64,000 nucleotides of DNA from Candidatus Dormibacteria bacterium (GTDB lineage Bacteria > Chloroflexota > Dormibacteria > Aeolococcales > Aeolococcaceae): assembly GCA_050734185.1 (NCBI GenBank), contig JBOHUE010000157.1, positions 1,430 to 65,429 on the forward strand, in the 5' to 3' direction. Both the position numbers and the translations under genes were made by a program. Positions 4,839 to 43,802 of this stretch are shown here, one piece after another. The notes beneath the pieces were generated by a model. The model had not been told where the DNA came from, did no database searches, and worked only from the letters and a program-made list of their open reading frames with translations. Numbering within the stretch: position 1 is the first letter of the stretch; every line of letters starts with the position of its first letter.

Positions 4839-4854
4839 CTACACTCCCACGCCG

Positions 4855-6600: not shown

Positions 6601-6652
6601 CCGCGACCCTTTCCTATAATTCGCTGCCAATCGCCGGAGCGCAGGAGGCGCA

Positions 6653-7846: not shown

Positions 7847-8598
7847 AGCCGCGCGTCTCGGTGGTCGTTCCCGTGCACAACGAGGGCGACGGCGTCACTG
7901 CGTTTCTCGAGCGACTGTTCGAGGCGCTGTCGCTTCCGGCTGAGGTGCTGTGCGTGTACGACGGCCCCGAGGACACCACGCTGCCGACGCTGCACCATGT
8001 TGCGCAACGCGAGCCGCGCTTGCGCGCCGTGCACAACACGTACGGGCGCGGCCCGGCGAACGCCATCCGCTTCGGCATCGACAACGCCATCGCGGATGTG
8101 GTTGTGGTCACGATGGCGGACGGCAGTGACGATCCGATGCAGATCGACCCCCTCACGCGGCTCGTCGAACGTGGCGTCGTGGTGGCGTGCGCCTCACGCT
8201 ACATGCGCGGGGGGCAGCAGGTGGGCGGCCCGTGGCTCAAGGGACGCATCTCGCGCACCGCAGGCGTCTCACTGCGGGTGTTCGGCAGAGTCGGGACGCA
8301 CGACGCCACCAACTCGTTCAAGGCGTATTCGCGAGCGTTCGTGCGCAAGGTCGGCATCGAGTCGGATGCGGGGTTCGAGATGGGACTCGAGATGGTCGCC
8401 AAGGCACGCCGGCTCCGGCTCCCGGTTGCCGAGCTGCCCACCATCTGGCTGGACCGTACGGGCGGTGTGTCCAACTTCAAGGTGCGCGCGTGGATGCCCC
8501 GCTACCTGCGCTGGTACTTGTATGCACTGGGGATGGGCAGGACGGACGCGCGCCGCGGCACGCAGCCGGACAGTTCTCTGGAGGCGGCGTCAGAGTGA
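7843..8598 (+). CDS. GT2 glycosyltransferase, polyprenol-monophosphate-sugar synthase (Ppm1/DPM1/CsbB-like)
   Basis: ATGA overlap with upstream gene; VSVVVPVHNE start and DGSDD (DxD-type) motif; about 250 aa, typical of the Ppm1 catalytic domain. Confidence 0.8.
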   Translation: MKPRVSVVVPVHNEGDGVTAFLERLFEALSLPAEVLCVYDGPEDTTLPTLHHVAQREPRLRAVHNTYGRGPANAIRFGIDNAIADVVVVTMADGSDDPMQIDPLTRLVERGVVVACASRYMRGGQQVGGPWLKGRISRTAGVSLRVFGRVGTHDATNSFKAYSRAFVRKVGIESDAGFEMGLEMVAKARRLRLPVAELPTIWLDRTGGVSNFKVRAWMPRYLRWYLYALGMGRTDARRGTQPDSSLEAASE

Positions 8599-9620
8599 GC
8601 ACAGTCCTTGTCACGGGATCGTCCGGGTTCATCGGCGGGTACGTCGTCGAGGAGCTGCTGGCCCGCGGCCACAGTGTGATCGGCATCGACAACGAGTCGA
8701 AGTACGGTCCGGTGTCCCGCTCCTACGACCAGCACAGCAACTACCGCCTCATCCGCGGCGATGTCCAGGACACAGCGCTGATGCGCGACGCGCTCGCCGG
8801 CTGCGATCACCTCATCGCCGGTGCTGCGATGATCGGCGGGATCTCGTACTTCCACACGTACGCGTATGACCTCCTCGCAACCAACGAACGAGTGATCGCG
8901 TCGACGTGTGACGCAGCCATCGACGCCCATCGGAACGGCAGGCTGCAGAAGGTCACCTACCTCAGCTCGTCGATGGTCTTCGAGTCCGCCGACCGCTGGC
9001 CCTCGTACGAAGGCCAGGAGCTCGAGGTCCCGCCGCCGAAATCGTCGTACGGCTTTCAGAAGCTTGCGGTCGAGTTCTTCGCGCGCGCGGCGCACCGTCA
9101 GTACGAGGTGCCGTTCACGATCGTGCGCCCCTTCAACTGCGTCGGCGTGGGCGAGGGACGGGCGCTCGGCGAGGTCGAGATCCTGAGCGGCAACGTGAAG
9201 CTGGCGATGAGCCACGTCGTGCCCGACCTGGTGCAAAAGGTGTTGAAGGGGCAGGATCCGCTGCACCTCCTCGGCGACGGCAGCCAGGTGCGTCACTACA
9301 CGTACGGCGGCGACCTGGCCAAGGGCATCGTCACCGCGATGGAGAGTCCTGCGGCGCTCAACGAGGACTTCAACCTCTCGACGCGCGACTCGACGACGGT
9401 GCTCGAGTTGGCCGAACAGATCTGGCGGCGGGTCCGGGGTGACGCGGTGCCGTTTCGCTACGTGTCGGATCCACCGTTCGAGTACGACGTGCAGCGCCGC
9501 GTCCCCGCGGTGGACAAGGCGGAGCGTGTCCTGGGGTTCGAGGCCACCACCACGCTCGATGAGATGCTCGACGAGGTGGTGCCGTGGATCGAGAGCGCCG
9601 TGGCAGCCGGCGCCATCTGA
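8595..9620 (+). CDS. NAD-dependent epimerase/dehydratase (extended SDR, UDP-sugar 4-epimerase/decarboxylase-like)
   Basis: GTG start at 8595 overlapping the upstream TGA (GTGA). The track ORF 8187..9620 is a 5' over-extension that overlaps the GT2 gene. Motifs VLVTGSSGFIGGYV (GxxGxxG) and SSYGFQK (YxxxK). Confidence 0.8.
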   Translation: MSTVLVTGSSGFIGGYVVEELLARGHSVIGIDNESKYGPVSRSYDQHSNYRLIRGDVQDTALMRDALAGCDHLIAGAAMIGGISYFHTYAYDLLATNERVIASTCDAAIDAHRNGRLQKVTYLSSSMVFESADRWPSYEGQELEVPPPKSSYGFQKLAVEFFARAAHRQYEVPFTIVRPFNCVGVGEGRALGEVEILSGNVKLAMSHVVPDLVQKVLKGQDPLHLLGDGSQVRHYTYGGDLAKGIVTAMESPAALNEDFNLSTRDSTTVLELAEQIWRRVRGDAVPFRYVSDPPFEYDVQRRVPAVDKAERVLGFEATTTLDEMLDEVVPWIESAVAAGAI

Positions 9621-9621
9621 T

Positions 9622-10911
9622 TCAGGCCGGCTGTGCGCTGCCGATGACCGCGTCGTCGGCCCGCGGCGCCTGGGTCGCGAACACCTCCCAGTCGAGACCC
9701 AAATCGTACTGGCCGGGCCGTCCCAGGTCATCGTTGACGCGGAACTCGAAGGATTGGTCCAGCCAGTCGTAAACGGTGGAGCCGGACTCGTTGTGCAGTC
9801 CGATGGTGGCGCGGTAGGTCCCCGTGAGGAACCGCAGTGCGTCGAGCTTGAACCGGAACACCGCGCCCTGGCCCGCCCGCAGCTGCGGCACCACGACGTT
9901 CGCCAGCTTCGTGTTGATGCCGCCGATGATCGAACCGTCGGCGCGATGCAGGCCGATGCCGACAATGGTGTCAGACACGTCGCGGTTGGCCTCGGCGGTG
10001 ATCTGGATCGTCATCGGCTCACCGGTGGTGAAGCTGACGTGCGGTTCGCCGTCGGCGCCGAGAAACCGCACGCTCTGCACGCGAATATCGCCGCTGCCCC
10101 AACGGCTGTCGCTGGGGCGGACATCGCTCAGGTCGACCAGGCTGCCACCGGACTCACGCCGCTCGTCGTCCTGCAGCTGGCCGATCAGCCGGTGATACCG
10201 AGCGGTCACGTCGGCGGCGTGCCCGTCCTCGACCACCTTGCCGTGCTCGAGCATGATCGCGCGGTCAGCGTAGAGCTCGACCGAGCTGAGGTCATGCGTC
10301 ACCAGGACGATGGTGCGTCCCTGGCGGCGGTAGTCGTTGAAGACGTCAAGGCATTTCGCCTGAAACCGCGCATCACCGACGGCGAGCACCTCGTCCATCA
10401 GAAGAATGGCCGCGTTCGCCTGGATGGCGACAGTGAACGCGAGGCGTACATGCATGCCCGATGAGAAGTTCTTCAGCTTCGTGTCGGCGAACTGATCGAG
10501 CTCGGCGAAGTGCAGCATCTCCTCCATGCGAGCCGAGAGGTCGCGTCGCGCGAGGCCGAGGATCGCGCCGTTGAGGAGCACGTTCTCGCGCGCCGTGAGC
10601 TCGGGATTGAAGCCCACGCCGAGCTCGAGAAAGGGCGACAGCTTGCCGTTGATTACCACTTTTCCGGTGGTCGGACGGTAGATGCGTGCCAGCATCTTCA
10701 GCAGCGTCGACTTGCCGGAGCCGTTGCGCCCGATGATGCCCATGAACTCGCCCTCGTGCACGTCGAAGCTCACGTCGTCGACCGCCAGAAGCGGGCGATA
10801 TCGCGAGGTGCTGCGCATGTGCACCACGCGGTGCTTGAGGGTGGCGCTCTTGTCGAGCGGTATGCGAAACCGCTTGGTCACGTGGCTGGCGGAGAGGGCG
10901 AGGTCGCTCAC
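9622..10911 (-). CDS. wzt: ABC transporter ATP-binding protein Wzt with C-terminal Wzt_C-like carbohydrate (chain-terminus) binding domain
   Basis: GTG start at 10911 overlaps the permease stop (GTGA). Walker A GIIGRNGSGKSTLL, signature FSSGMHVRLAF, Walker B ILLMDEVLAVGD. About 170-aa C-terminal beta-rich extension typical of Wzt/TagH. The upstream part of track ORF 9622..11865 is an out-of-frame artefact over the permease gene. Confidence 0.85.
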   Translation of the reverse strand: MSDLALSASHVTKRFRIPLDKSATLKHRVVHMRSTSRYRPLLAVDDVSFDVHEGEFMGIIGRNGSGKSTLLKMLARIYRPTTGKVVINGKLSPFLELGVGFNPELTARENVLLNGAILGLARRDLSARMEEMLHFAELDQFADTKLKNFSSGMHVRLAFTVAIQANAAILLMDEVLAVGDARFQAKCLDVFNDYRRQGRTIVLVTHDLSSVELYADRAIMLEHGKVVEDGHAADVTARYHRLIGQLQDDERRESGGSLVDLSDVRPSDSRWGSGDIRVQSVRFLGADGEPHVSFTTGEPMTIQITAEANRDVSDTIVGIGLHRADGSIIGGINTKLANVVVPQLRAGQGAVFRFKLDALRFLTGTYRATIGLHNESGSTVYDWLDQSFEFRVNDDLGRPGQYDLGLDWEVFATQAPRADDAVIGSAQPA

Positions 10912-11738
10912 AGGCTTTCGGCGAACGTCGGTGATAGCCAGCGGAACGTGAAGAGGCCCAGGACCAATAGCCCGATCGACAATGCAACCGGCACGGCGGC
11001 GAGAGCGTGGACCGACGCGATGCTGGACGCTGCGTCGGGCACGACGATGACGTGGCGCACGTCCTCGATGATCTGTGCGACCGGGTTGATGAAGAACAGG
11101 CCGTGGAAGCGCACCGGGACCAGCGTGATGGGGTACACGATCCCCGACGCGTAGAAGATGACCTGCGTGAGGATCTCCCAGATGTGTCCCAGATCGCGAT
11201 AGAACACGAACAGCGAAGCGAGCAAGAGCGAGAGTCCGAGCGAGAGCACGTAGAGCTCGAGCACGAGCGGAATCGCAAACAGTGAGCGAAGCCCGAGCTG
11301 GAGATGCCCCAACGGTGCAGCCACGACGACGATGAGCGTGAGGTTGATGACGAACGTCATCGCGGCGGTCATCGACGAGGCCACCACCAGTACCCAGCGC
11401 GGGAAAAACGCCTTCTGGATGAGACCGGGGTTGCCGGCGATCGAGCTCATCGCGGTGCCCGTGCACTCGGTGAAGAACGTGAAGATGACGATGCCGACCA
11501 GAAGTTGCACGGCAAACTCGTGCGCACGCTGTTTGAACAGCACCACGAAGATTGCGTACATGATGCTGAACAGCATCGCCGGCTTCAGCAGCGACCAGAG
11601 ATAGCCCAGCACGGACCCCGTGTACTTGAGCTTGAACTGCGTCCAGGCGAGCTCTCGAATCAGCGCGGCGTTGCGGGCGAAATCCGAGAAGCGGTCCGCC
11701 ACCGGTGGGCGCGCGCCCACTCGTGCGAGCACACTCAT
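10908..11738 (-). CDS. wzm: ABC-2 type polysaccharide exporter permease Wzm
   Basis: 276 aa with 6 TM helices; ABC-2 signature region FKLKYTGSVLGYLWSLLKP; translationally coupled to wzt. Confidence 0.85.
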   Translation of the reverse strand: MSVLARVGARPPVADRFSDFARNAALIRELAWTQFKLKYTGSVLGYLWSLLKPAMLFSIMYAIFVVLFKQRAHEFAVQLLVGIVIFTFFTECTGTAMSSIAGNPGLIQKAFFPRWVLVVASSMTAAMTFVINLTLIVVVAAPLGHLQLGLRSLFAIPLVLELYVLSLGLSLLLASLFVFYRDLGHIWEILTQVIFYASGIVYPITLVPVRFHGLFFINPVAQIIEDVRHVIVVPDAASSIASVHALAAVPVALSIGLLVLGLFTFRWLSPTFAESL

Positions 11739-11762
11739 GGCGGGCCAAGTGTACCAGGCAGG

Positions 11763-12974
11763 CTATTCGGGAGCAGCCGGCGCATGAGCGATCACCGCGT
11801 AGTCCTGCGGACCGAACAACACGTCGTTGAGCCGCGACAGCGCGACATTGATGTTCGTCGCCCACTCGGGAACGTCGCCGTCCGGCAGCAGCGGCAGATG
11901 GTATGCGGACGCCGGCGCGAAGTACCGAATCTCGACGTCGCGAAAGCCGGCTCGCTCGCAGAGAAAGATCAACAGCAGCGGGTGCAGCGGGCGCACGTGC
12001 GTGGGGTCGAGCACATACGAGTTGCCGAGCACGATGAGCGACGAAGGATTCGGTGTCTCGGCGATGAAGACGCCGCCGGGCTTGAGCCGCGAGACGGCGA
12101 GCTCGAGCAGCTCGAGCAGCTGCTCGAGCTGGAGATGCTCCACCACCTGCATGGAGACGACTGCACCGTACGTGTTCGGCGGAGCCATGCGCAGAGTGTC
12201 CACCGCGTCTGCCAGGCGAACGTTGCGGCCGAGCGCTGTCGCTTCGGCAACTGCGTCCGCACTCAGGTCGACACCTTCGGCGTCGATTCCTTCCGCCGCG
12301 AGCAGAGCCACGAGCTCACCCCGGCCGCATCCGACATCAATGACCGGGGCGTGATTGCGCAACACGCTGAGATAGCGTTCGCGCTGCGCGCCGGTGATCG
12401 TGTCCGAGTCGCCGCGGAACCGCCGCTCGAAGCCGGCGTAATCGAACCCGCTCGATCCCGCAGGCATCGGGGCAGCCGCCGCCGCGGCCGGAGCCGTCGC
12501 ACTCGGAGGCTCCGGCGTGGATTGCATGATCCGCCGCGTCCGCCGGTCGATGTCGTTGATGCGCTGGCGCAGCTCGCCCATGCGCACGCTCGCCCCCGAG
12601 AGCCCAGCGGTGGGCGCTATCGCGTCGCCGAGGTCGTTGAGAACGGCGAGCAGCGACCGCATCTCGGCCTTGTGCAGCTCCTGGTTGATCGTCAGCTCGC
12701 GCACCTGTCGCTCCGAGTCGCGCAGCGAGGCCCCGAGCTCCTGCTCGGCACTCGCCACCGCGGTGTGCGCTGCTGCCTCAGCTGCGCCGTCGACGTACCA
12801 CGCGATGCCGCGCCGGATTACACGCTTCAGCTGCGTCTTGGCAGCACCCAGTGGGGGCAGCGGCCGGCGCGCCGGGACCACATCGGGCGCGGCGTCGGTG
12901 GGACGGGTGACCGCCATGCGTTGCCGCAGGCGTTCGAACGCCTCGGGGTCGAGATACGCGGGCCGTCTTCGCAT
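11763..12974 (-). CDS. class I SAM-dependent methyltransferase with N-terminal coiled-coil (candidate WbdD-like chain terminator)
   Basis: N-terminal approximately 130 aa heptad/coiled-coil-like; C-terminal MTase motif I VIDVGCGRGELV and post-I VVSMQVVEHL; immediately upstream of wzm-wzt. Confidence 0.7.
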   Translation of the reverse strand: MRRRPAYLDPEAFERLRQRMAVTRPTDAAPDVVPARRPLPPLGAAKTQLKRVIRRGIAWYVDGAAEAAAHTAVASAEQELGASLRDSERQVRELTINQELHKAEMRSLLAVLNDLGDAIAPTAGLSGASVRMGELRQRINDIDRRTRRIMQSTPEPPSATAPAAAAAAPMPAGSSGFDYAGFERRFRGDSDTITGAQRERYLSVLRNHAPVIDVGCGRGELVALLAAEGIDAEGVDLSADAVAEATALGRNVRLADAVDTLRMAPPNTYGAVVSMQVVEHLQLEQLLELLELAVSRLKPGGVFIAETPNPSSLIVLGNSYVLDPTHVRPLHPLLLIFLCERAGFRDVEIRYFAPASAYHLPLLPDGDVPEWATNINVALSRLNDVLFGPQDYAVIAHAPAAPE

Positions 12975-13838
12975 TCAGGACGCGACCACAAACGGTTTGA
13001 GCGCGAGGCGAGCACGTCGACGGACCATCGCCGATTCCGGGGTGTTCAATGCGTCGAGCGCTGACTCGACGCGCATCAGCGAAAGCAATTCGGGCGAGCC
13101 GAGCAGGCCGAGCGCGGTCGCGACCCGGGCGCCGACGTTGCGGCGACCGCGACTCGACTCGATCAACCGCCGCCCCGAGCGGCTGAGCGCGGCGGCCCGA
13201 GGCATATCGCCCGCGACGTGCAGCGCGAGGTCGGCGAGCTGGTCGTCGAACCCGACCTCGACGTCGACACCCGGGCGCGCCCCGATGCGCTCGGCCGAGA
13301 GGCTGTCGGTGACGGTCGGCGCGGCCCACGCCAGCGCCTGCGTGAGCCCCTCGCCGATCGCAATGCATGCAGAACAGACGGTCAGCGCCGGCGCCAGCCC
13401 GCCGGCGGGGATGCTGTCCGTGCGCAGATCGACGACCATGCGCTCGGGCAGGCCCTCGCGGCGGCGGATTCGCGCCCGGACAAACGGGGCCACCGGAGGG
13501 ATCGCGTCGACATCGATGCCGCCGTCCGGGGGGATCAGGACGGCGCTGCGGTCGCGGGCAAGGTCGGCGTCGCCCGTGAGGAGCAGCGTCGCGGGCACCC
13601 CCACGGCACTGTCGGGATCCTCGTCGTCGATCCACATGGCAACGGGCTTGCCCGAACTCAGCGCCGCCGCCAGGCCGAGCGCGCGTGGTGAGGAGGCGAT
13701 GTAGGCAGCCGGGACACTCTCAGGCTCGACGAACAGCGGTGTCGCCCAGCGGCCGAGCTCGCGCAGCAGCCAGGCGAAATTCGGAGGGGGATCGGGCGCC
13801 GCGAGCACGCCGAGCAGCGGCAGCTGCGGGGAGCTCAT
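12975..13838 (-). CDS. hypothetical protein (possible degenerate GT-B C-domain)
   Basis: Strong GC3 bias in this frame; ATGA overlap with the upstream GT4 gene and abuts the methyltransferase start. No confident domain recognised; alternate-frame ORFs 12517..13704(+) and 12778..13635(-) judged artefacts. Confidence 0.45.
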   Translation of the reverse strand: MSSPQLPLLGVLAAPDPPPNFAWLLRELGRWATPLFVEPESVPAAYIASSPRALGLAAALSSGKPVAMWIDDEDPDSAVGVPATLLLTGDADLARDRSAVLIPPDGGIDVDAIPPVAPFVRARIRRREGLPERMVVDLRTDSIPAGGLAPALTVCSACIAIGEGLTQALAWAAPTVTDSLSAERIGARPGVDVEVGFDDQLADLALHVAGDMPRAAALSRSGRRLIESSRGRRNVGARVATALGLLGSPELLSLMRVESALDALNTPESAMVRRRARLALKPFVVAS

Positions 13839-14875
13839 CCGGCCAGCCGGCCCGCTGCCCGCGAAGCTCCCAGGAGCGCGTCGACGACGTCGTCCCAGTT
13901 GAGTCCGTTGGCGCGCCGCCGTCCCGCCTCGCCCAGGCGGCGCGCCAGATCGCGATCCGCGTCCAGACGCGCGATCGCCTCGGCAACGTGGTCAGGGCTC
14001 CCGTCGGTCACCAGGCCGGTCACGCCGTCCTCGACCCACTCGAGGACACCGCCGGAGTCGCGAGCGGTGATCACCGGCTTGCCGGAGAGGAACGCCTGCA
14101 GCGTCACGTAGCCGTAGTCCTCCTCGTGAGGCAGGTAGACGACGGCGAGCGCGCCGGCAAATCGAGCGATGAGATCCTCGTCGTCGAGAAAGCCGGTGAT
14201 CTCCAGCCGGGGTCCAAGCCGCAGGCGCTCGGCGGCGGCGCGGATCGCGGGTTCCAGCGACCCGGGACCGGTGAGCACGCCGCGGACGCCCGAGGGACAC
14301 CGCGCCAGCGCCTCGACCAGCAGCTGCGGGCGCTTGTTGCGCTCGAGGCGCATCGGGGCGAACACGTAGTCGCCAAAGGGCCCGGAGTGCAGTCGATCGG
14401 ACAGGGGTGGCGGATGGTACAGGGGTGTCGAGCCGAGCCCGTTGAAACGCAGCAGCCGCTCGCTGACGACGTGCGAGGTGGTGAACACGCGCTCCGCCTC
14501 CTCGAGGGCTCGCGTGTCCCAGTCCGTCATCACCTGCTGCGCCTCGAGCGAGTCGTCGTCGGTGCCGATGTCCGACCACGACGAATCGGCCGCGTCATAG
14601 AGCGCCCGATGTTGGTGAAAGAGCCACACAACCTTGTCGGGATGCGTCGCGAAGTACGAGGGAAAGTTCGTGCAGATGACGAGGTCGGCGTCAAGTGGGA
14701 GCAGACGCCACGCAAGCGCAGCGTCAAAGATCCGCACTCTGTCCCACGCGACCGGCAGTCTGACAAGCTCCGCCTCATGCCGGGCCCTGCCGAGCGCGGT
14801 CACGAGGTTCTCCATGTGCATCTCGGCGCCACCGCGCATGAACGGCTTTTGCGCCCCGCAAACGAGAATCCGCAT
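13835..14875 (-). CDS. GT4-family glycosyltransferase
   Basis: Real start taken at the internal ATG (MRILVCG, nt 14875; alternative ATG at 14902). The 407-aa track ORF start at 15058 would overlap the divergent gene. GT-B C-domain with FLSGKPVITARDSGGVLEWVEDGVTGL. Confidence 0.75.
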   Translation of the reverse strand: MRILVCGAQKPFMRGGAEMHMENLVTALGRARHEAELVRLPVAWDRVRIFDAALAWRLLPLDADLVICTNFPSYFATHPDKVVWLFHQHRALYDAADSSWSDIGTDDDSLEAQQVMTDWDTRALEEAERVFTTSHVVSERLLRFNGLGSTPLYHPPPLSDRLHSGPFGDYVFAPMRLERNKRPQLLVEALARCPSGVRGVLTGPGSLEPAIRAAAERLRLGPRLEITGFLDDEDLIARFAGALAVVYLPHEEDYGYVTLQAFLSGKPVITARDSGGVLEWVEDGVTGLVTDGSPDHVAEAIARLDADRDLARRLGEAGRRRANGLNWDDVVDALLGASRAAGRLAG

Positions 14876-14922
14876 CCTGCTCTCTGTACTCGCGGGCATC
14901 ATAGAGACTTTCCGCGTCAGCG

Positions 14923-16188
14923 GTGCACAATCCAGAGGAACCAGTGGTGAACGAATCTCGCCCCTACGGCCGCATCGGCTTCGTGGCCCCGCGGTTCGGC
15001 GAACGCGTCGTGGGCGGCGCCGAAGCCGTGCTGCGCGAGGTGGCGCAGGGCTTTGCACGCCGGGGCTGGGATGTCGAGGTCCTCACCACCTGCGCGCGAG
15101 ACCACTTCACGTGGGCAAACGAATACGCGCCGGGGACGGAGCGAGTCGGAGATCTCACGGTGCGGCGATTTCCCGCGGTGGTGTCAACCGCTCGCAGGGA
15201 CCGCGCGCGCATCGAAGCGGCCATCCTCGCTGGCGACACGGTGAGCGTCGAGGACCAGCAGTGCTGGGTGAACGACGACCTGCGAGTCCCCGAGCTGTTC
15301 CATCATCTCGTCGACCACGCTCAGGACTATCGCGCGCTCGTGTTCGCTCCGTACATGTTCTGGACGACGTTCGCGGGCGCGCAGGTGGCTCCCGAACGCA
15401 GCATCTTGATGCCCTGTCTGCACGATGAGGCCTATGCCCGGCTCGACATCTTCCAGCCGGTGTTCTCCGGATGCGCAGGCGCGTGGTTTCTCTCCGACCC
15501 CGAGCATGCGCTCGCGCATCGTCTGTTCACCGTCCCCGGCCGCCATGAGGTCGTGGGCTCGGGCGTGCGCGTGCCTGCGACCTATCAGCCGGAACGCTTT
15601 CGCGAGCGACACGGCATCCGCGACCGCTTCGTGCTGTTCGCAGGGCGCCGCGAGGGTGGTAAGGGCTGGGAGCTGATGCTCGACGCATTCGCCCGCGCCG
15701 TGCAACGGCATTCGCTTCCCTTCTCGCTGGTGACGATGGGCACCGGCATCGTGCATCCACCGGAGTCGATCCGCGACCGGGTGATCGATCTGGGATTCCT
15801 CGACGACGAGGACCGCGACGACGCCTTCGCGGCGGCCGATGCATACATTCAGCCCTCACCGCATGAGAGCTTCTCGCGAACCATCATGGAGGCCTGGCTG
15901 GCGGGAACGCTGGTCATCGCCAACGGCGCCAGTGAGGTTGTTCGCTGGCACTGTGATCGGTCCGGAGCGGGGCTGACGTACGACGACGACGTTGAGCTCG
16001 GTCAGTGTCTCGCGTTCGCCGCAGAGTCACCGCAGAGCGCAGCGGCACTGGCCGGCCGCGGACGCGCATACGTCCTGGCGCATTACGCGCCCGACGCGGT
16101 GTTGCAGCGGCAGGAGGACACAATCCTCAGCTGGTTTCCCGCGACCGGCTCGGTGCCGGCCCAACGGCCCGATGAGGCGATTGCGTGA
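14923..16188 (+). CDS. GT4-family glycosyltransferase
   Basis: EX7E motif region ESFSRTIMEAWLAG; N-terminal RIGFVAP. The start may instead be the GTG at about 14948 (GAGGAA SD upstream), which would leave a roughly 70-bp divergent promoter region. Confidence 0.75.
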   Translation: MHNPEEPVVNESRPYGRIGFVAPRFGERVVGGAEAVLREVAQGFARRGWDVEVLTTCARDHFTWANEYAPGTERVGDLTVRRFPAVVSTARRDRARIEAAILAGDTVSVEDQQCWVNDDLRVPELFHHLVDHAQDYRALVFAPYMFWTTFAGAQVAPERSILMPCLHDEAYARLDIFQPVFSGCAGAWFLSDPEHALAHRLFTVPGRHEVVGSGVRVPATYQPERFRERHGIRDRFVLFAGRREGGKGWELMLDAFARAVQRHSLPFSLVTMGTGIVHPPESIRDRVIDLGFLDDEDRDDAFAAADAYIQPSPHESFSRTIMEAWLAGTLVIANGASEVVRWHCDRSGAGLTYDDDVELGQCLAFAAESPQSAAALAGRGRAYVLAHYAPDAVLQRQEDTILSWFPATGSVPAQRPDEAIA

Positions 16189-17609
16189 CCCGCATCCTGG
16201 TCATCGCGCCATATCCGCCGGTGCGTGACGGCATTGCCGCGTACACGGTGCAGTCGGTGGCCCGCCTGCGTCACGCGGGCAATCACGTTGAGGTGCTGTC
16301 TCCGTACCCGTCCGCGGCACACCACCACCTGCCGCTCAACACCATCAACGGAGTGCTGCGGCTGATCCCGTACGTTCGCCGTTTCGACACGGTCCTCGTG
16401 CAGTACCACCCGGACATCTTCTTCCCGCGCTCGAGCAGCGCAGCGGAACGCGAGCGCATCGCCGCGGCCCTCACGCTCGTGTGGCGCAGCGCAGCGCACG
16501 TCGAGATTCGAGTCCACGAAGCTGATTACGCGCGGGCGCATCGCGGGCCGGCGTGGCTGGCGACGCGCGCGATGTGGCGCGCCGCGTCCCGGATAACGGT
16601 GCACACCGGCACCGAGCGGACACTGTTCCATCGAGCGTACGGCCTCCCGCTCGCACGCATCGAGGTGGAGCGTCACGGCAGCGACTTCGCCGTGCGCAGT
16701 GGCGACAGCCGTGATGACGCGCGTGCTCGGCTCGCGCTGCCGCGCGACCAGCTCATGTTTCTGTCGATCGGTTTCATCCAGCCGCACAAGGGCTTCGACC
16801 GGGCGATCCGGGCGTTCATCGCGAGTGGCGCCGCCGGATCGAGGGGGGCACGACTCGATGTCGTCGGTTCCGTGCGCGTCGAGGAACCGGCGTATGTCGC
16901 TCACCTGGAGGAGCTGCAGCGGCTCGCCGACGCGACCAGCGACGTGCATCTGCACGTGGGCTTCATCGGCGATGAGGAGTTCGATACCTGGATCGTCGCC
17001 GCGGACGTCATCGTGCTGCCGTATCGCCACATCTGGTCATCGAGCGTGATGGAGCGCGCCGCACTGTACGGCCGGCCCGTCCTCGCCGCAAGGGTTGGCG
17101 GCCTCGCCGACCAAGCGCGGCCGAACACCACCCTGTTCGACGACGACGCCGAGCTGGCAGCCGCCATGCGGCACATCGTTGCGGAGCGCGGCGTCGCCCT
17201 CGACACGAGTCCGGCGCCGCGCATCCCCTGGCCGGACCCCGAAACGGCCACGCGCGCCATCGTCGAAGACGAGGTGCGGAGCCGCGCGGCCGCCGAGCGC
17301 CGCGCTCTGTTCCCGAGTGACCGAAACGGCGCTGCGCCGCCCACCTCCACAAACGGCACGGCCCTCACCGGCGTGAGCGCACGGCTGCGCCGGCTCCCGC
17401 CACTGCAGCTGCCCGCCCCCGAGTCACCCCGGCCCGGCGCGACTCCGCTCAAGCGGTTGATCCAGCGTCTCACGCGCTGGCAGCTGGAGCCGATCGTGCA
17501 TCAGGTCAACGAGCTGCAGCGGGTCGTCGCCAGCACACTGGAGGACCGCCCGCTCGGGGAATCGGATCAGGCGCCCGACAGCCCGCGGACGCTGGTGTCG
17601 CCCCCGTAG
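16185..17609 (+). CDS. GT4-family glycosyltransferase with about 120-aa low-complexity C-terminal extension
   Basis: GTG start overlapping the upstream TGA; ILVIAPYPP N-terminus; C-domain motif VLPYRHIWSSSVMERAALYGRPVL. Confidence 0.75.
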   Translation: MTRILVIAPYPPVRDGIAAYTVQSVARLRHAGNHVEVLSPYPSAAHHHLPLNTINGVLRLIPYVRRFDTVLVQYHPDIFFPRSSSAAERERIAAALTLVWRSAAHVEIRVHEADYARAHRGPAWLATRAMWRAASRITVHTGTERTLFHRAYGLPLARIEVERHGSDFAVRSGDSRDDARARLALPRDQLMFLSIGFIQPHKGFDRAIRAFIASGAAGSRGARLDVVGSVRVEEPAYVAHLEELQRLADATSDVHLHVGFIGDEEFDTWIVAADVIVLPYRHIWSSSVMERAALYGRPVLAARVGGLADQARPNTTLFDDDAELAAAMRHIVAERGVALDTSPAPRIPWPDPETATRAIVEDEVRSRAAAERRALFPSDRNGAAPPTSTNGTALTGVSARLRRLPPLQLPAPESPRPGATPLKRLIQRLTRWQLEPIVHQVNELQRVVASTLEDRPLGESDQAPDSPRTLVSPP

Positions 17610-20113
17610 TTCGGAGAGAACACCGGCGGAGCCCCCGCGAACGAGTGGAACCCGCCGTAGTAGTCAACGACCCACCCCTGGGTGCTTGACCCCGGCACGA
17701 ACACGATGCCGCGGGCGATGTCCCAGGCGGGCCAGTAGCCGGTGATCTGCTGCGGGGTGAGCTGCGGCGGCGCGCTGCCGGGCACGCCGAAGGGATGCGG
17801 CCCGCCGAGGCCGTCCATCACATAGCCGCCGGTTCCGGCCGGATCGAGGGCGAACCGGTGGGCGATGTCCCAGCCGGGCCAGTACGCGGTCACGGCGGCG
17901 TTCGCCGGGATGTCGCCGCTCACGCCGAACGCGTGCACTCCCCCGAGACCGTCCAAGACGTAGCCGCTGACGCCATCCGACCGAAGCTGCACGTCGCGCG
18001 CGATGTTCCATCCCTGCCAGTACGCGGTCACCTGCACGCTCGGAGGCATGTCACCCGGCACGCCGAACGGATGCAGGCCACCGAGACCGTCGAGGACGTA
18101 GCCGCTCTGGCCGTCGGGGCGCACCGCGATGCCGCGAGCGATGTCCCAGCCGGGCCAATAGGCGGTCGCGGCAACCGGCGGCGCGGTGCCGAATGGGTGC
18201 ACCCCGCCGAAGGCGTCGAGCGTGTATCCGCCCGCGCCACCGGCGGCGACCGCGATGCCGCGGACGATGTCCCAGTTGGGCCATTCCGTGGCGCCGTACA
18301 TCGGCGCGGACGACCCGGGATCGAGGATGCCCGTCGCTGAAACGGCGTACAAGCCCTTGAAGGGAGTGCTGTACAGCGCCGCCGACGCGATGGTCGTCGT
18401 CGCCGTGTTGGTCGAGAACCCCGCATCCTGGGTCGCAGCCCGGGTGGCCGCCTGCACGGTGAAGGCATACGAGTGCCCGGGCACGCCGTTGAAGGGCATG
18501 CTCGTCTGGTTCGTCGTGCCGTAGCGAATCCAGCCGCCCGCAGCCTGGTCCCTGACCCAGACGATGTACGAGCTGGCGGGGACGCTCGACGGGTCGAGAC
18601 TCCAGGTGAGGGTGATCCCGGTCGTCGCCTGCAGCGGGGACAGCGCGCCCATCGTCGCGCTCGGCGCCATCTGACCGCTCAGCTGGGCGTTCCCGTGGAA
18701 GCCGGTCCACGATCCGGGCAAGATCTTCGTCGTTCCCGGGATGGGGAACGCCCGCACTGTCCAGGCGGTGCGCGCGCTGTTCGCCTGGCTGAGCGTGATG
18801 ACGCTCACCTTGCCGGCGCCCAGGTCCGCGAACGTCGGCGCCGCGAAGCCGCCGACGTCCAGCGGCCCTGCCGTCAGCGCCACCTGTCCCGCGTTGTTGT
18901 AGGCCCGCAGCGTCGCCCCGGCGATGATCCAGACGCCGTTGCTCGAGCCACTGCCGATCGGGCCGATTGCCGGATTCGACTCCAGGCTGCCCACGCCAGG
19001 ATGCGCCGGCCAGCCGGCGAGTGCGTTGCCGGTCCAGTCCCACGCGTAGAGCGAGCCGTCCTCGCTCGCCTCGACGACGTCGCGGCTCCCGTTGCCGAAG
19101 AGATCGCCGAGCGCGGGTGACGCAATGTTCATCGCCCCCGTTGACGCGGGCCAGCCGCCGAACGAGGACCCCGCACCGGTGAACCCATGCACCTGGTCGC
19201 CCGCGGGCCCGCTGTAGAGATTGCCGGTGCCCGCATAGATGGCGACGTTGTGGCCGTCGAGGTCCACAGCGGCGCTCGAGGACCAGGGAACCTGGTCGAT
19301 CGTGTGGGGCCAGCCCGGGATGACGCAGTTCGATTGGTTCGCGTAGCTGTTGGCCACGCACCCGGTCGGTCGGAAGGCCCAGTACACGCCGCCCGTCGGG
19401 TACGGCTCGTACAGCGGTCCGGAGGAATCGAAGCCGACCACGATGTCGAGCTGCCCGTGATGCTCGAGGTCGACCAGCGTGGGTGTATCGAACGCCGTGT
19501 CCCAGACGTGGAGCGGAAAGCCCGACAGCACGTTGCCGTAGCGATCCCACGCCCAGAGATGCTGGTCCCACGCAGCCGCCACCAGCTCCTTGTGGCCGTC
19601 ACCAAAGAGGTCACCCACGGCGACACCACCGAACACACCGGGATTCACGCCGGGTCCAGGTGGGTCGGTGTGCTGCGGCCATCCCGGGAACACCGATCCG
19701 TCGCCGTTGAAGACATAGATGTAGCCCGCCTCGGAGGTGGCGATCACCTCGTCACGCCCGTCGCCGGTGAGGTCGGCGACTGTTGGAGTGCTGTGGATGG
19801 GGCCACCGATGTACTGGGGCCAGCCCGGGAGCACCGCGCCGGTGACGCCATCGAACGCCCACACGCTGCCGTCGGGGAAGCCGGCCACGACCTGCTTGCG
19901 CCCGTCACCGAAGAGGTCGGCGACCGTTCCTCCGCCGAACGGCTCCGACGAGATCCCCGACGGCGGGCTCGACTTACCGGGCGCGACGTGGACGGTGGCG
20001 GACCAGCTCGCGGTCAGCGTCGGCGGCGCTGCAGGGGCCGGCGTGCTGCCACCAGCGCCGGTTGCGAACACGTAGGCCGACAGGACTGCGGCACTCCACG
20101 AAAACGCCCCCAT
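17567..20113 (-). CDS. secreted FG-GAP-repeat beta-propeller / FN3 / 42-aa-repeat protein
   Basis: Signal peptide; seven FG-GAP-like Ca-loop repeats (VADLFGDGRKQVVAG, VADLTGDGRDEVIAT, VGDLFGDGHKELVAA ...), each followed by a GWP motif; fibronectin-III-like segment (ITLTWSLDPSSVPASSYIVWVRD...YAFTVQA); six C-terminal copies of the 42-aa repeat. Confidence 0.8.
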   Translation of the reverse strand: MGAFSWSAAVLSAYVFATGAGGSTPAPAAPPTLTASWSATVHVAPGKSSPPSGISSEPFGGGTVADLFGDGRKQVVAGFPDGSVWAFDGVTGAVLPGWPQYIGGPIHSTPTVADLTGDGRDEVIATSEAGYIYVFNGDGSVFPGWPQHTDPPGPGVNPGVFGGVAVGDLFGDGHKELVAAAWDQHLWAWDRYGNVLSGFPLHVWDTAFDTPTLVDLEHHGQLDIVVGFDSSGPLYEPYPTGGVYWAFRPTGCVANSYANQSNCVIPGWPHTIDQVPWSSSAAVDLDGHNVAIYAGTGNLYSGPAGDQVHGFTGAGSSFGGWPASTGAMNIASPALGDLFGNGSRDVVEASEDGSLYAWDWTGNALAGWPAHPGVGSLESNPAIGPIGSGSSNGVWIIAGATLRAYNNAGQVALTAGPLDVGGFAAPTFADLGAGKVSVITLSQANSARTAWTVRAFPIPGTTKILPGSWTGFHGNAQLSGQMAPSATMGALSPLQATTGITLTWSLDPSSVPASSYIVWVRDQAAGGWIRYGTTNQTSMPFNGVPGHSYAFTVQAATRAATQDAGFSTNTATTTIASAALYSTPFKGLYAVSATGILDPGSSAPMYGATEWPNWDIVRGIAVAAGGAGGYTLDAFGGVHPFGTAPPVAATAYWPGWDIARGIAVRPDGQSGYVLDGLGGLHPFGVPGDMPPSVQVTAYWQGWNIARDVQLRSDGVSGYVLDGLGGVHAFGVSGDIPANAAVTAYWPGWDIAHRFALDPAGTGGYVMDGLGGPHPFGVPGSAPPQLTPQQITGYWPAWDIARGIVFVPGSSTQGWVVDYYGGFHSFAGAPPVFSPNYGGDTSVRGLSGA
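17570..18386 (-). repeat. in-frame coding tandem repeat, 42-aa period, about 6 copies
   Basis: Same GYVLDGLGGxHPFG...AYWPGWDIARG unit as in 1216..3402, read from the translation. Confidence 0.8.
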
Positions 20114-20250
20114 ACGACCCTGAGCCTATGGACCCCCTGCACCCGCCATCCGCGTCGCTACAGGCTCGTCGCAGCGCGGTCATCGATTGCGAAAGACGCC
20201 GCGGAACGCGACACGACGCGCCTGCCATGCCCACTACCATGTGATCGCAC

Positions 20251-21408
20251 ATGGCGGATACGCCCTTGCGGCTCTGCGTCGAAGCAAACGTCATCTGCGC
20301 GACACATCAAAGTGGCGTCGGCCACGCGGCCCAGGGGTTGATCACCGCGCTGGTGCGCGACACCGAAGCGCAACAGCATGTGCACGTCGTGCTGATCGTA
20401 CCGCTGCGCGGTGCTGCACGACTGCAGCGCGTGGGACTCGGCTCTGTGTCGCGACTCACGATACCGCTGCCGCTCCGTGGCTACGAGCGGTGGGCGGCAG
20501 TGCCGGTGTTGCCACCACTGGACGTGTTGTTCGGCCGCGGCACATACCTCTTCACGAACTACGGCAACTGGCCGTTGCTGCGCTCGAGATCGTTGACGAT
20601 CATTCACGACGTCGCATTTCTCCGCCACCCTGCGACCGTCGAGGAGCGCACCGGCGCCAGGCTGCGTCACAACGCACGGCGATGGGCGCACCGCACGTCG
20701 ATGGTGCTCGTGCCCTCGGAGTTCTCGCGCACCGAGCTGAGCGCATGCCTCGATCTCGATCCGGCGCGCATTGCGGTGATGCCGCTCGGCGTCGACACCA
20801 CGATCTTCTTCCCGCGCCGTGCCGACGAGGTGCACGCGACGCTGCGCCGCCTCGGGCTGTCTCCGGGGTACGTGCTGTATTTCGGCAACATCGAGCCGCG
20901 CAAGAACCTGGCACGGCTTGTGCGCGCCTACGGCGCTGTCGATCGCGAGCTGCAGCAGCAGCACCCCCTGGTGCTCGCCGGCAGCACCAGCTGGAGAGCG
21001 GAGGAGATCGAGCGCGAGATCGCGAACGCGCAATCGCGCGGATACAGAGTCGAGCGGCTTCCGGGCCGCATCAGCGACACGGATCTCCCGGCGCTGCTCA
21101 GCGGCGCGGCGATGCTGGCGCATCCGTCGCTGTACGAGGGGTTCGGACTGGTACCGCTGCAGGCGATGGCGTGCGCCACGCCGGTGCTCGTCTCCAATCG
21201 TGCAGCCATGCCCGAGGTCGCCGGCGGCGCCGGGTTGTACGTCGATCCCCTGCAGGAGGACGACATCACGCGCGGCATCGAGACGTTGTTGACCGACGCC
21301 GGCCTGCGCGCATCGCTGAGCGCCGCCGGCCGGTTACGCGCGTCCACCTTCACGTGGCAGCGCACGGCCACCAGCTTTCTGGACGCCGTGCGGACCCTCA
21401 ACACGTAG
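20251..21408 (+). CDS. GT4-family glycosyltransferase
   Basis: C-domain motifs GYVLYFGNIEPRKN and SLYEGFGLVPLQAMACATPVLVSN (EX7E); track ORFs 20187..21923 and 20158..21123 are overlapping artefacts. Confidence 0.8.
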   Translation: MADTPLRLCVEANVICATHQSGVGHAAQGLITALVRDTEAQQHVHVVLIVPLRGAARLQRVGLGSVSRLTIPLPLRGYERWAAVPVLPPLDVLFGRGTYLFTNYGNWPLLRSRSLTIIHDVAFLRHPATVEERTGARLRHNARRWAHRTSMVLVPSEFSRTELSACLDLDPARIAVMPLGVDTTIFFPRRADEVHATLRRLGLSPGYVLYFGNIEPRKNLARLVRAYGAVDRELQQQHPLVLAGSTSWRAEEIEREIANAQSRGYRVERLPGRISDTDLPALLSGAAMLAHPSLYEGFGLVPLQAMACATPVLVSNRAAMPEVAGGAGLYVDPLQEDDITRGIETLLTDAGLRASLSAAGRLRASTFTWQRTATSFLDAVRTLNT

Positions 21409-21507
21409 CCCACCATCCGCAACGACGTTGTTACGACGCCATCATTTCGTTCAGGCGGTTCACACCGACCATGCAACGGGCGGTATCGATAATCGCAGGA
21501 GCATGGT

Positions 21508-23730
21508 GTGGCGCAGCACGGCGGTACAGGTCGCAGTTGGCACAAACTGGCTGCGCTCGCACTCGCCGGCGCGGTGGTCACCGTCCTTGCGCCCACCGGT
21601 ATCACCGCGCACGCCGACACCGCACACTCACTCGTCACCGCTGGGGCGCCGCTGGCCATCGCCGGCGCCGTGGCGCCGGGCATCATCGACAACAACCTGT
21701 GCTCGAGTCATCCGTACGGGACGGTGATGATCAGTGGCGCGTCGTGGGCCGGCGGCCTGGGACATCCGCCGTCGTCGGGTGGCGCGACGTTCGATGTGTC
21801 CAGCAACTGGGACGGCTCGTCGTGCTGGCGCAGCGAGGAGCCGACCGACGGCAGGGACAGCTACGGAACGCAGTACCAGTGCACCGAACTGGCGATGCGT
21901 GTTGCCGACCTCGAGTGGGGTGAGGGCAGCGAGAGAGCGTGGTCGGCGGCAGGCTGGACCGGCGACGGTTACAGCATGTTCGACGCCGGCCCCAGGCTTG
22001 CTGTCCCGCTCGTGGCGACGCCCAACGGCTCAGGATCGCTGCCGAGTCCAGGCGACATCATGGTGTGGGACGCAACGCCGAGTGACACCACCGGCCACGT
22101 TGCGGTGGTCGAGCGAGTCGACACGGTGGCGCAGCGGGTCTGGGTCGTCAGCCAGAACAGCTACGCCGCCGAATATGGTCTTCCCTACTCCGGCACCACC
22201 ATCGATCCGACAGCTCAGTTTGGTCTTCCGCTGCGCGGTTGGCTCGGCAGTCCGCGGCCGACGCGCGGTGTCGCGCTGCGCAGCGACGGTGTATCGGGAT
22301 ACGCGCTCGACGGTTGGGGTGGCGTGCTCCCGTTCGGCGGTGCACCGCCGCTGAGCGTCAGCGCGTACTGGCCCGACTGGGACATCGCACGCGGGATGGC
22401 AATGCGCGCCGACGCGTCCGGCGGATACGTCCTCGACGCCTTCGGGGTCCTGCATCCCTTTGGCAGCGCGCCGGATGTCGCCATCAGCGCGTACTGGCCC
22501 GGGTGGGACATCGCCCGCGCCGTCGTGCTTCGATCCGACGGTGTGAGCGGGTACGTTCTCGATGGTCTCGGCGGCCTGCATCCCTTCGGCGGCGCGCCCT
22601 CGGTGGCGATCAGCGCGTACTGGCCGGGCTGGGACATCGCGCGTGCCGTCGTACTCCGGCCGGACGGCGTGAGCGGCTACGTTCTCGACGGACTCGGCGG
22701 CCTCAATCCATTCGGCGGCGCGCCGTCGGTCGGCGCCACCGCGTACTGGCCGTCGTGGGACATCGCCCGTGCCGTGACGCTGGTGACCGACAACAGCAAT
22801 CCACATGTGCCGGCGAACTCCGGCTGGACGCTCGACGGCTGGGGCGGCGTGCACCCGTTCGGCGGTGCGCCGGCCGTCGACTTCCCAGCAAATCCGTACT
22901 TTTCCGGTCGCGACGTCGCCCGCGGCATCGCCTTTCAACCGTTGATGGACGCCGGTGTGACGGTCGACGGCCGGTCGACCCCCGCAGCGTTTCGCGTCAC
23001 ACCGCCTGTCCGTGCACTCGCGTACAAACCCGGGACGAGCAGCGGCTACCTGCTGGATGGCTACGGAGGCCTCACGCCGTTTGCCGGAGCGCCCGCTCTC
23101 TCGGCTGCGTCGGCGAAACCGCGCTGGCCGGAGTGGGACATCGCGCGCGGCGTCGCTCTTCGCGCCAACGGGACGAGCGGTTACGTGCTCGACGGCTTCG
23201 GCGGCCTGCACCCGTACGGCGGGGCGCCGAACGTGGTCATCACCGGGTACTGGCAGGGCCACGATCTCGCACGCGGAGTGGTGCTCCGGGCTGATGGCGT
23301 GAGCGGCTACGTGCTGGACGCGCACGGCGCGCTGTGGCCGTTCGGCGGCGCACCCGCGATCGCGACGACGACCACCTGGTCGACCGACGTCGCCCGCGGA
23401 GTCGTGCTGACGTCGAATGGGACGGGTGGCTACGTGCTCGACGCATATGGTGGCGTGAATCCGTTCGGCTCTGCGTCGGCGAGTGCAGCGCCCATGTGGC
23501 CCGGATGGGACCTGGCCCGCAGCATCGCGCTCCTCACCGATACGAGTGGATACATCCTCGACAGCTGGGGCGGCGTGCACCCGTTCGGCGGCGCGCCACT
23601 CCTGCCCGGCGCCCGCTACTGGCCGGGGTCCGACGCCGCGCGAGGCATCGCGCTCTCCGGGTCATCGACCGCACAGTCGCCGTCGGGCACCGTCGCCTAC
23701 CTCAACGGAGCGACGAGCAGCGTCTCGTAG
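21508..23730 (+). CDS. secreted CHAP-domain amidase/peptidase with 12 C-terminal 42-aa repeats
   Basis: Signal peptide; CHAP catalytic Cys context YQCTELAMRVADL (aa about 125) and His context GHVAVVERVD (aa about 197); then about 12 tandem copies of the 42-aa repeat. Confidence 0.8.
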   Translation: MAQHGGTGRSWHKLAALALAGAVVTVLAPTGITAHADTAHSLVTAGAPLAIAGAVAPGIIDNNLCSSHPYGTVMISGASWAGGLGHPPSSGGATFDVSSNWDGSSCWRSEEPTDGRDSYGTQYQCTELAMRVADLEWGEGSERAWSAAGWTGDGYSMFDAGPRLAVPLVATPNGSGSLPSPGDIMVWDATPSDTTGHVAVVERVDTVAQRVWVVSQNSYAAEYGLPYSGTTIDPTAQFGLPLRGWLGSPRPTRGVALRSDGVSGYALDGWGGVLPFGGAPPLSVSAYWPDWDIARGMAMRADASGGYVLDAFGVLHPFGSAPDVAISAYWPGWDIARAVVLRSDGVSGYVLDGLGGLHPFGGAPSVAISAYWPGWDIARAVVLRPDGVSGYVLDGLGGLNPFGGAPSVGATAYWPSWDIARAVTLVTDNSNPHVPANSGWTLDGWGGVHPFGGAPAVDFPANPYFSGRDVARGIAFQPLMDAGVTVDGRSTPAAFRVTPPVRALAYKPGTSSGYLLDGYGGLTPFAGAPALSAASAKPRWPEWDIARGVALRANGTSGYVLDGFGGLHPYGGAPNVVITGYWQGHDLARGVVLRADGVSGYVLDAHGALWPFGGAPAIATTTTWSTDVARGVVLTSNGTGGYVLDAYGGVNPFGSASASAAPMWPGWDLARSIALLTDTSGYILDSWGGVHPFGGAPLLPGARYWPGSDAARGIALSGSSTAQSPSGTVAYLNGATSSVS
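22234..23727 (+). repeat. in-frame coding tandem repeat, 42-aa period, about 12 copies
   Basis: Read from the translation; the antisense 516-aa ORF 22030..23580 is an artefact of this GC-rich repeat. Confidence 0.8.
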
Positions 23731-43729: not shown

Positions 43730-43758
43730 TCCTCCACACGGAGCTCTCCGTATCCATA

Positions 43759-43802
43759 CCGCGTTGGCCATTACATCGCACCGCGTTGGCCATTACATCG
43801 CA
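43759..43802. repeat. perfect 22-bp tandem direct repeat x2 (CCGCGTTGGCCATTACATCGCA)
   Basis: Seen directly, 30 bp after the stop of 42287..43729. Confidence 0.8.

Follow-up and report, generated by a model that had tools for sequence, protein, structure and literature searches.

The modular CHAP hydrolases of Gram-positive bacteria and their phages (LysK, PlyC, Sle1/SsaA, PcsB) combine a catalytic domain, recognisable by its Cys-His pair and a downstream Asn, with a separate non-catalytic module; the autolysins of Gram-positive bacteria are secreted, whereas phage endolysins are released at lysis. The same plan is seen in the protein that is the subject of this analysis, the 740-amino-acid (aa) product of a GTG-initiated open reading frame (ORF) at 21508..23730 (+) in a stretch of 64,000 nucleotides (nt) of Candidatus Dormibacteria DNA (assembly GCA_050734185.1, contig JBOHUE010000157.1), hereafter the window, and it has a signal-peptide-like N-terminus. 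What sets it apart from enzymes of the LysK/PlyC type is its accessory module, a predicted pair of beta-propellers of about 490 aa instead of SH3b, LysM, GW, CW_7 or choline-binding repeats. Our verdict is that this is an ordinary CHAP hydrolase whose putative targeting module belongs to an uncharacterised and taxonomically restricted, but large, propeller family, and we consider it probable, from its domains and their distribution, that a secreted peptidoglycan hydrolase is here held on envelope glycan by a multivalent lectin-like propeller.

For the module itself, comparisons can be drawn with two groups of wall-binding domains. In the Firmicutes, SLH and CWB2 modules anchor proteins non-covalently to secondary wall polysaccharides, and the cwp genes of C. 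difficile adjoin the PS-II locus. The propeller family is like them in that one module is carried by many secreted paralogs per genome (wall hydrolases, proteases, glycosidases, adhesin-like proteins), and in that its genes cluster with wall-glycan synthesis loci, a linkage resembling that of cwp to PS-II. The fold is different, however, being a propeller as opposed to a three-helix SLH bundle or a CWB2 trimer, as are the taxa, and no pyruvyl-transferase-type marker was identified for the system described here. LysM, the properties of which as a wall-binding repeat have been summarised (PMC5817068), is also a repeated module of peptidoglycan hydrolases, chitinases and deacetylases, a spectrum that fits recognition of GlcNAc glycans, but LysM is an independent beta-alpha-alpha-beta unit of ~45 aa, often joined to its neighbours by linkers, whereas the 42-aa units of the propeller family would be blades of a closed domain and not functional singly. 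No propeller is among the wall-binding domains that were catalogued for monoderms in 2018, and in the literature we found no account of a propeller-type wall-binding domain or of the 42-aa repeat.

The CHAP domain and its tandem propellers

The catalytic domain occupies residues 119-217 (21862..22158, +), where the Pfam CHAP family (PF05257) matches at E 5e-12 over model positions 4-81 of 81, with 46.6 bits exceeding the gathering cutoff of 26. The Cys/His pair on which the initial annotation had based its call of a CHAP-type wall amidase is well founded: the motif QCTEL lies at residues 124-128 and GHVAVV at residues 196-201, which puts Cys125 (codon 21880-21882, +) at the position of the CHAP nucleophile and His197 (codon 22096-22098, +) at that of the base, with a conserved Asn217 (codon 22156-22158, +) downstream. 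Among 36 related CHAP-propeller proteins the Cys is kept in 35, the His in all 36 and the Asn in 35, and the PHROGs lysis families 'amidase' and 'endolysin' match the domain at E 1.5e-7 to 8e-5. In CHAP domains a third polar residue (Glu, Asp or Asn), part of an E-x-N motif, orients the His. Position 215, two residues before the Asn, is Ser (codon 22150-22152, +), i.e., the sequence reads S215-Q216-N217 in place of E-Q-N with the Cys, His and Asn retained; 26 of the 36 relatives have Glu there and nine have Ser, the latter residue being that of the orthogroup of the 740-aa protein. In searches of the PDB, with the single sequence and with a profile, the CHAP part alone matched, the nearest sequence being the CHAP domain of glutathionylspermidine (Gsp) amidase (E 5e-4), in which Glu147 sits opposite Ser215. 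The NCBIfam model for Gsp amidase gave E 2e-5 and 22.9 bits, against a cutoff of 882, and a homolog search with the CHAP region, aimed at finding this CHAP joined to known wall-binding modules and limited in its reach by a word-index prefilter, yielded one CHAP-only protein of 315 aa. Since Cys125, His197 and Asn217 are kept, the domain resembles phage lysis enzymes and a signal peptide is predicted, the default reading of the protein would be that of a murein amidase or endopeptidase that is secreted; by itself the CHAP enzyme is routine.

The predicted signal peptide, of the Sec type, spans residues 1-36 (MAQHGGTGRSWHKLAALALAGAVVTVLAPTGITAHA, with D following; 21508..21615, +), and consists of a positive n-region, an LAALALAGAVVTVLA core and a cleavage-like site, AHA/D. 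Hydropathy peaks at 1.8 over residues 16-34, and the call is a manual reading of hydropathy and cleavage-like site rather than the output of a dedicated predictor; an inspection of the N-terminus by eye found neither a lipobox nor a twin-arginine motif. Between the signal peptide and the CHAP domain is an extension (residues 37-118; 21616..21861, +) with two cysteines, Cys65 and Cys106, that has zero matches in Pfam and NCBIfam. It is partly conserved among orthologs, as consensus residues visible in ortholog alignment A1 attest. The start of the gene is preceded by a Shine-Dalgarno sequence, AGGAG (21497..21501, +; read directly), 6 nt before the GTG (21508-21510), and the same start codon is used by gene callers on two public contigs; an identical 740-aa product is called on an NCBI contig of a metagenome-assembled genome (MAG; GCA_975305505.1) and in one Logan assembly. 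The ORF ends with the stop codon at 23728-23730 (+), and consensus scans for a promoter and a terminator around the gene found none.

Beyond a linker (residues 218-251; 22159..22260, +) that lies outside the repeat matches and is modelled at low predicted local distance difference test (pLDDT) values, the remainder of the protein is taken up by the repeat. Its unit is 42 aa, and a hidden Markov model (HMM) built from six copies of it finds ten in the protein, at independent E values of 1.8e-27 to 5.8e-10, while two more, at residues 467-501 and 710-740, are degenerate and become visible only by register and in the structure model. The array of 12 copies described initially is in that sense real, though it consists of ten clear copies and two degenerate ones; the idea of a linear run of independent repeats has to be replaced, on the AlphaFold2 (AF2) model and the copy numbers, by that of two closed six-bladed beta-propellers. 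That the repeat is far beyond chance is plain, because about 2,000 representative public proteins carry it. At the DNA level Tandem Repeats Finder (TRF) picks up the youngest copies, with a period of 126 bp, 3.6 copies and 76% matches at 22321-22775, and blades 3 and 4 (22513-22764) are identical at 36 of 42 residues; this near-identity, together with the TRF period and its matches, suggests that blades were duplicated, or converted one by the other, recently within the propeller.

In the full-length AF2 model residues 250-740 are all-beta, with block-mean pLDDT of 65-96 (mostly about 90), and each repeat forms three strands and a short fourth. Modelled alone, residues 250-501 reach a pLDDT of 91.8 and a predicted template modelling (pTM) score of 0.90, and the predicted fold is a closed toroid of six four-stranded antiparallel sheets. 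On the evidence of the repeat HMM, the AF2 model and Foldseek, the predicted layout is as follows: propeller 1 comprises residues 252-501 (22261..23010, +), with blades starting at residues 252, 294, 336, 378, 420 and 467, the fifth containing an insertion and the sixth degenerate, and propeller 2 comprises residues 502-740 (23011..23727, +), with blades starting at 502, 546, 588, 629, 670 and 710, the last of them (blade 12) degenerate. The top Foldseek matches of the full-length model are tandem beta-propeller proteins. Among 354 proteins of the family, detectable repeats per protein peak at 5-6 and at 10-12 (one protein has 15), and it is because copy numbers cluster in this manner and blades 6 and 12 are degenerate that the array is predicted to be two six-bladed propellers in tandem. 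A single ring of 12 blades was considered and rejected, as one half, modelled by itself, gives a closed domain of six blades with high confidence, and members of the family have 6, 12 or ~18 blades.

The nearest structural neighbours of the propeller are the extracellular sensor domain of PknD from Mycobacterium tuberculosis (PDB 1RWI), an NHL-type six-bladed propeller with 13% sequence identity, and then NHL domains, the identities ranging from 11 to 18%. PknD displays its propeller on a transmembrane kinase, whereas the propellers of the family described here are C-terminal appendages of secreted enzymes. Structure comparison also revealed a resemblance to the soluble lectins RSL (Ralstonia) and AAL (Aleuria); tachylectin-2 and PVL are lectin beta-propellers too. 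RSL and AAL have no sequence similarity to the family, whose sugar binding is putative, and they are stand-alone lectins, while the family's propellers are fused to enzymes. No known family claims the module by sequence. Searches of residues 250-740 against Pfam and NCBIfam (E up to 0.1-10) returned nothing but a sub-cutoff chance match to MACPF_D3, with no match to the models for LysM, SH3b types, GW, SPOR, CW_7, PG_binding_1/2, CW_binding_1/2, SLH, ChW, WXL or LGFP; PHROGs at permissive thresholds gave no family for the propeller; and neither NHL (PF01436) nor any other propeller family was matched when the two propeller halves were put through hmmscan with a permissive threshold. Membership in the NHL or YWTD families was rejected by sequence, and the kinship to PknD and NHL is structural only. 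With the family profile, the best E value of the propeller against PDB sequences was about 1, i.e., chance, so that there is no sequence-related solved structure, and by these searches the family is uncatalogued, being missing from Pfam, NCBIfam and the PDB.

The content of the blades recalls the lectins. In 795 blades, Arg2, Asp17, His23, Trp37, Trp40 and Asp41 are each conserved in 78-97%, and Trp makes up 4.1% of the mature protein, like in sugar-binding propellers. If the standard topology of propellers applies, the YWPGWD loop, which leads from strand D to the next strand A, would share one face of the propeller with the DG[WYF]GG turn that joins strands B and C, and polar and aromatic residues recurring in each blade would, by analogy, be the pattern of multivalent lectin propellers. 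Avidity-based binding to envelope glycan is proposed because of that pattern.

Distribution of the propeller family

Out of 1.84 billion representative sequences, a profile search picked 1,974 proteins with E <= 1e-3, the number being 915 when the limit is E <= 1e-30, and the family size of about 2,000 is to be read as clusters at 50% identity. Across the species genomes of GTDB, the family is encoded by at least 487 loci. Carriers are mainly Candidatus Dormibacterota, Chloroflexota MAGs, Acidimicrobiia, Thermoleophilia and other Actinomycetota. Several paralogs per genome are usual (of the best 80 loci, as many as five come from a single MAG), and the nearest whole-protein orthologs of the 740-aa protein have 56-69% identity, one of them named Candidatus Dormibacteraeota. 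According to a review, the Chloroflexota are among the monoderm Terrabacteria, with the Dormibacterota as their closest lineage, and the Dormibacterota are yet-uncultured, ubiquitous terrestrial bacteria (PMC10608941). Our search of the literature found no description of their envelope. To our knowledge, the Acidimicrobiia have few cultured representatives.

Among the top 120 full-length matches, the partners of the module were CHAP (27), M23 (13), SpoIID (11), polysaccharide deacetylase (9), amidase_2 (7), GH25 (6), NAGPA (4) and YkuD (1). Further partners came from a search with the propeller alone and from 63 randomly sampled representatives, which matched 75 Pfam families: CAP, GH18, GH5, GH9, TIG/fn3/Big and Ig-like domains, as well as subtilase, purple acid phosphatase and propellers of the PQQ-like and FG-GAP types. 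Proteins with N-terminal CHAP, GH25, M23 or deacetylase domains can be aligned over the two-propeller cassette, degenerate sixth blade included, and the cassette seems to travel as one piece. Of 354 family proteins, 315 (89%) have the module at the C-terminus, and a hydrophobic N-terminal segment was seen in 205 of the 265 with an intact start. The initial annotation had seen in the repeat an envelope-targeting domain, strengthened by its presence on a peptidoglycan hydrolase. Targeting to the envelope is still the best reading, given the C-terminal position, the signal-like N-termini and the fusions to peptidoglycan enzymes; a tie to wall hydrolases in particular does not survive the finding of the module on GH18, GH5, GH9, CAP, phosphatase, protease and Ig-like proteins. 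It is a general module of secreted proteins, enriched on murein enzymes and not confined to them.

One cultured carrier is the acidimicrobiian Salinilacustrithrix flava (NZ_CP133888.1), the protein of which (locus L072, 2887-4587) has a signal peptide, an N-terminal six-blade propeller of the family and a C-terminal region of ~270 aa without a Pfam match, and belongs to the minority with an N-terminal module. Members at 46-67% identity are labelled as Archangiaceae/Myxococcaceae, Burkholderiales, Acidiferrales or Bifidobacterium breve MAGs (P0047, P0049, L008, L032, L046, L073), one of the Archangiaceae/Myxococcaceae cases being on a contig of 477 kb. Either diderms have acquired these genes horizontally or the binning is in error, a choice that bears on whether the ligand is a polymer of the carrier's own wall.

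Glycan-locus linkage and the function of the module

Within the window, three propeller genes flank and interrupt a surface-glycan biosynthesis and export locus (3432..21408, no strand assigned). Its genes, identified by Pfam, encode a DUF6541 protein, a UDP-glucose dehydrogenase (UGDH), a GT2 glycosyltransferase, an epimerase, Wzm/Wzt (with Wzt_C), a methyltransferase and five GT4 glycosyltransferases. Besides the CHAP gene, Pfam and the repeat HMM identified two further carriers that end in the same repeat, with 5-6 copies at each C-terminus. The ORF at 1216..3402 (+) has a Reprolysin_5-like (M12) domain (a weak match, 21.8 bits against a curated cutoff of 27), Big_3_5 and a six-blade propeller with five strong copies and one weak; that at 17567..20113 (-) has an FG-GAP propeller, a weak fn3 (below cutoff, E 0.014) and a six-blade propeller in which four copies are strong, one more has E 0.0012 and the last is weak. 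That a metalloprotease-like, an FG-GAP and a CHAP protein have one module in common had been noticed from the start, and the repeat HMM confirms it; no remaining six-frame ORF of the window had a full-sequence E below 0.1 with that HMM.

The linkage is repeated in other genomes, where homologs of the glycan-locus genes (GT4, Wzm/Wzt, methyltransferase, UGDH, epimerase) lie within ±3 kb of 25 out of 78 propeller loci, seven of the 25 having a full-length Wzt that includes Wzt_C, and 84 kb of control DNA, a small and crude control, contained none. It depends on architecture: at 10 of 12 loci of the FG-GAP-fn3-propeller type there are GT4, Wzt or methyltransferase homologs within 3 kb, and the M12-Big architecture has glycan genes at both of its two loci. 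Loci of the FG-GAP-fn3-propeller type were seen in MAGs of Dormibacterota and Acidimicrobiia (L035, L040, L041, L044, L046, L049, L054, L071, L073), and the architecture gives the impression of being a conserved part of loci for glycan export by Wzm/Wzt. The CHAP gene adjoins the glycan locus or the FG-GAP gene in this genome and in the close relatives L006 and L007. The argument concerning the ligand rests on the whole family and not on the CHAP gene, because the latter keeps its position at the glycan locus only in close relatives.

In the mechanism that we propose, and consider probable, the CHAP-propeller protein would be secreted by the Sec route, and its CHAP domain would use Cys125 as nucleophile and His197 as base, with Asn217 close by, to cleave an amide or peptide bond in the stem or cross-bridge of murein. 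The two C-terminal propellers would bind envelope glycan multivalently, by avidity, the ligand being peptidoglycan itself or else a polysaccharide of the wall that a Wzm/Wzt locus, like the adjacent one, exports, and this binding would retain the enzyme at the wall, concentrated and positioned at its substrate. Wall targeting by the propellers is here inferred from association. In Dormibacterota, Acidimicrobiia and Thermoleophilia, much of the secreted proteome may be retained at the surface by the same cassette, as a shared C-terminal module. A more ambitious proposal can be made, if tentatively and with doubts outweighing conviction: the 42-aa repeat might be a previously undescribed class of surface anchor, a lectin-like propeller that recognises the glycopolymer of the linked Wzm/Wzt-GT4-methyltransferase locus and fills an SLH/CWB2-like role in these three groups, displaying dozens of enzymes that include most autolysins, with the FG-GAP-fn3-propeller protein as a conserved component of the locus.

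Several observations sit uneasily with a hydrolase held at the wall by its propellers. At the level of the enzyme these are the Ser at position 215, where CHAP relatives usually have Glu, and the CHAP part of the full-length model, which is of low confidence and was built on a shallow and mixed alignment. The propellers are acidic (pI 4.9 and 6.4), and many modules that bind the anionic polymers of walls are basic. Only 3 of 10 loci of the CHAP architecture are linked to glycan genes, and CHAP orthologs at 56-60% identity neighbour an OmpR-type two-component system instead. A few matches are named as Myxococcota MAGs, i.e., diderms. None of the 154 pattern matches in IMG/VR viral contigs was confirmed to carry the module, so that support from endolysins is absent, and the protein itself does not conform to a phage endolysin, having no lysis cassette among its neighbours, no copy in IMG/VR and a Sec-type signal peptide. 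Finally, the partners of the module include enzymes whose target is not peptidoglycan (GH18, GH5, GH9, purple acid phosphatase, CAP), so that the module could be substrate-directed or serve for glycan binding in general.

This last point also counts in favour of the most substantial rival. The propellers might be a carbohydrate-binding module (CBM) for foreign or environmental polymers, such as chitin, cellulose or the walls of other cells, and the CHAP protein a released enzyme, bacteriolytic or scavenging, directed against neighbours or necromass. The carriers are soil bacteria, the fold is like that of the soluble lectins RSL and AAL, relatives at 46-47% identity are named as MAGs of Archangiaceae and Myxococcaceae, which are predatory diderms, and the spectrum of partners is LysM/CBM-like (GH18 in 5 of 63 representatives, GH5, GH9, polysaccharide deacetylases, phosphatases). 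The module is found, however, also on domains for which no polysaccharide is a substrate (CAP, Ig-like, fn3, FG-GAP, protease); strong linkage to the carriers' own Wzm/Wzt loci fits a self-made ligand better, and there are several paralogs per genome, as in the SLH and CWB2 families. We regard a foreign ligand as unlikely, if worth keeping in mind.

We give less credence to the two other explanations. The top structural neighbours, the PknD sensor and the NHL domains, bind proteins or RNA, and some distant CHAP orthologs adjoin an OmpR-type two-component system, from which it might be argued, with PknD and the NHL domains as the analogy, that the propellers are a platform for protein-protein contacts or sensing (regulatory, autoinhibitory or a self-assembling surface-layer scaffold) with no glycan binding at all. 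This appears improbable: near-identical polar and aromatic residues in every blade suggest repeated, equivalent, lectin-like sites and not a single asymmetric interface, and the 75 Pfam families among 63 representatives argue against a partner-specific regulator. That the CHAP domain might act on another amide- or thioester-type bond, in a glutathionylspermidine-like conjugate or in a peptide decoration on the wall glycopolymer of the adjacent locus, is very unlikely in our estimation. The closest PDB and NCBIfam entry is the Gsp amidase, the usual third catalytic Glu is Ser215 here, and the gene abuts the glycan locus or the FG-GAP gene in this genome and the two close relatives; yet glutathionylspermidine metabolism is cytoplasmic and the CHAP protein has a signal peptide, the NCBIfam score is far below its cutoff, the phage lysis families match better (E 1.5e-7), and domains of the GH25, M23, SpoIID and deacetylase types are followed by the identical two-propeller cassette, an indication that murein is the substrate they have in common. 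A murein hydrolase retained on envelope glycan is, in our judgement, the reading that these observations favour.

The interest of the module extends beyond this one enzyme. A single recognisable C-terminal module that marks a large share of the secreted enzymes of Dormibacterota and Acidimicrobiia, and is linked to glycan-export loci, offers a handle on the composition of the surface proteome, on the positioning of autolysins and on the wall polymer that is carried. Defining the family would better annotate thousands of 'hypothetical' metagenomic proteins, the cultured carrier S. flava makes binding experiments feasible, and the propeller, if its ligand is specific, could be turned into a probe or used to target engineered lysins.

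Surrounding features of the window

The ORF at 9622-11865 (-) of the glycan locus (747 aa) is probably two genes run together: its residues ~59-305 correspond to an ORF that in L015 stands by itself next to Wzt and is presumably the Wzm permease, and residues ~314-735 match Wzt ATPases with the Wzt_C domain that recognises glycan ends. A methyltransferase ORF (11763-12974) adjoins it, overlapping its 5' end, and this layout of Wzt and methyltransferase recalls the export of O-antigen or teichoic-acid-type polymers under the control of a chain terminator.

In L003, L004 and L005, loci of other Dormibacterota MAGs (orthologs P0005 and P0007), the CHAP-double-propeller gene is divergent from genes for an OmpR-family regulator and a HAMP-HisKA kinase, beyond which are several more response regulators and a guanylate-cyclase-domain gene. 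A two-component system as the neighbour of these CHAP orthologs is reminiscent of the control of autolysins by WalRK and MtrAB.

In the window, the neighbours of the CHAP gene are glycosyltransferases, a tRNA, a type IV secretion system (T4SS) coupling protein and sucCD. The tRNA-Lys (anticodon TTT) is 86 nt 3' of the CHAP gene, in a region (23816-25638) where it directly abuts the gene for a lone, VirD4/TraG-like coupling protein on the minus strand, followed by sucD and sucC; the tRNA and coupling-protein region could be the remnant of an integrative element at a tRNA site. Further along, at ~40000-56000, is an island of lower GC content (58-64%, as compared with about 69% elsewhere). It contains a gene for a cytidine-deaminase-domain protein (40423-41997), a perfect 22-bp tandem duplication (43758-43802), genes for two HNH_2 endonuclease proteins (44108-46020) and one for a protein of 1572 aa in which a sacsin-type domain and NOV_C are combined (49333-54051, -), and has the look of a defence or mobile island.

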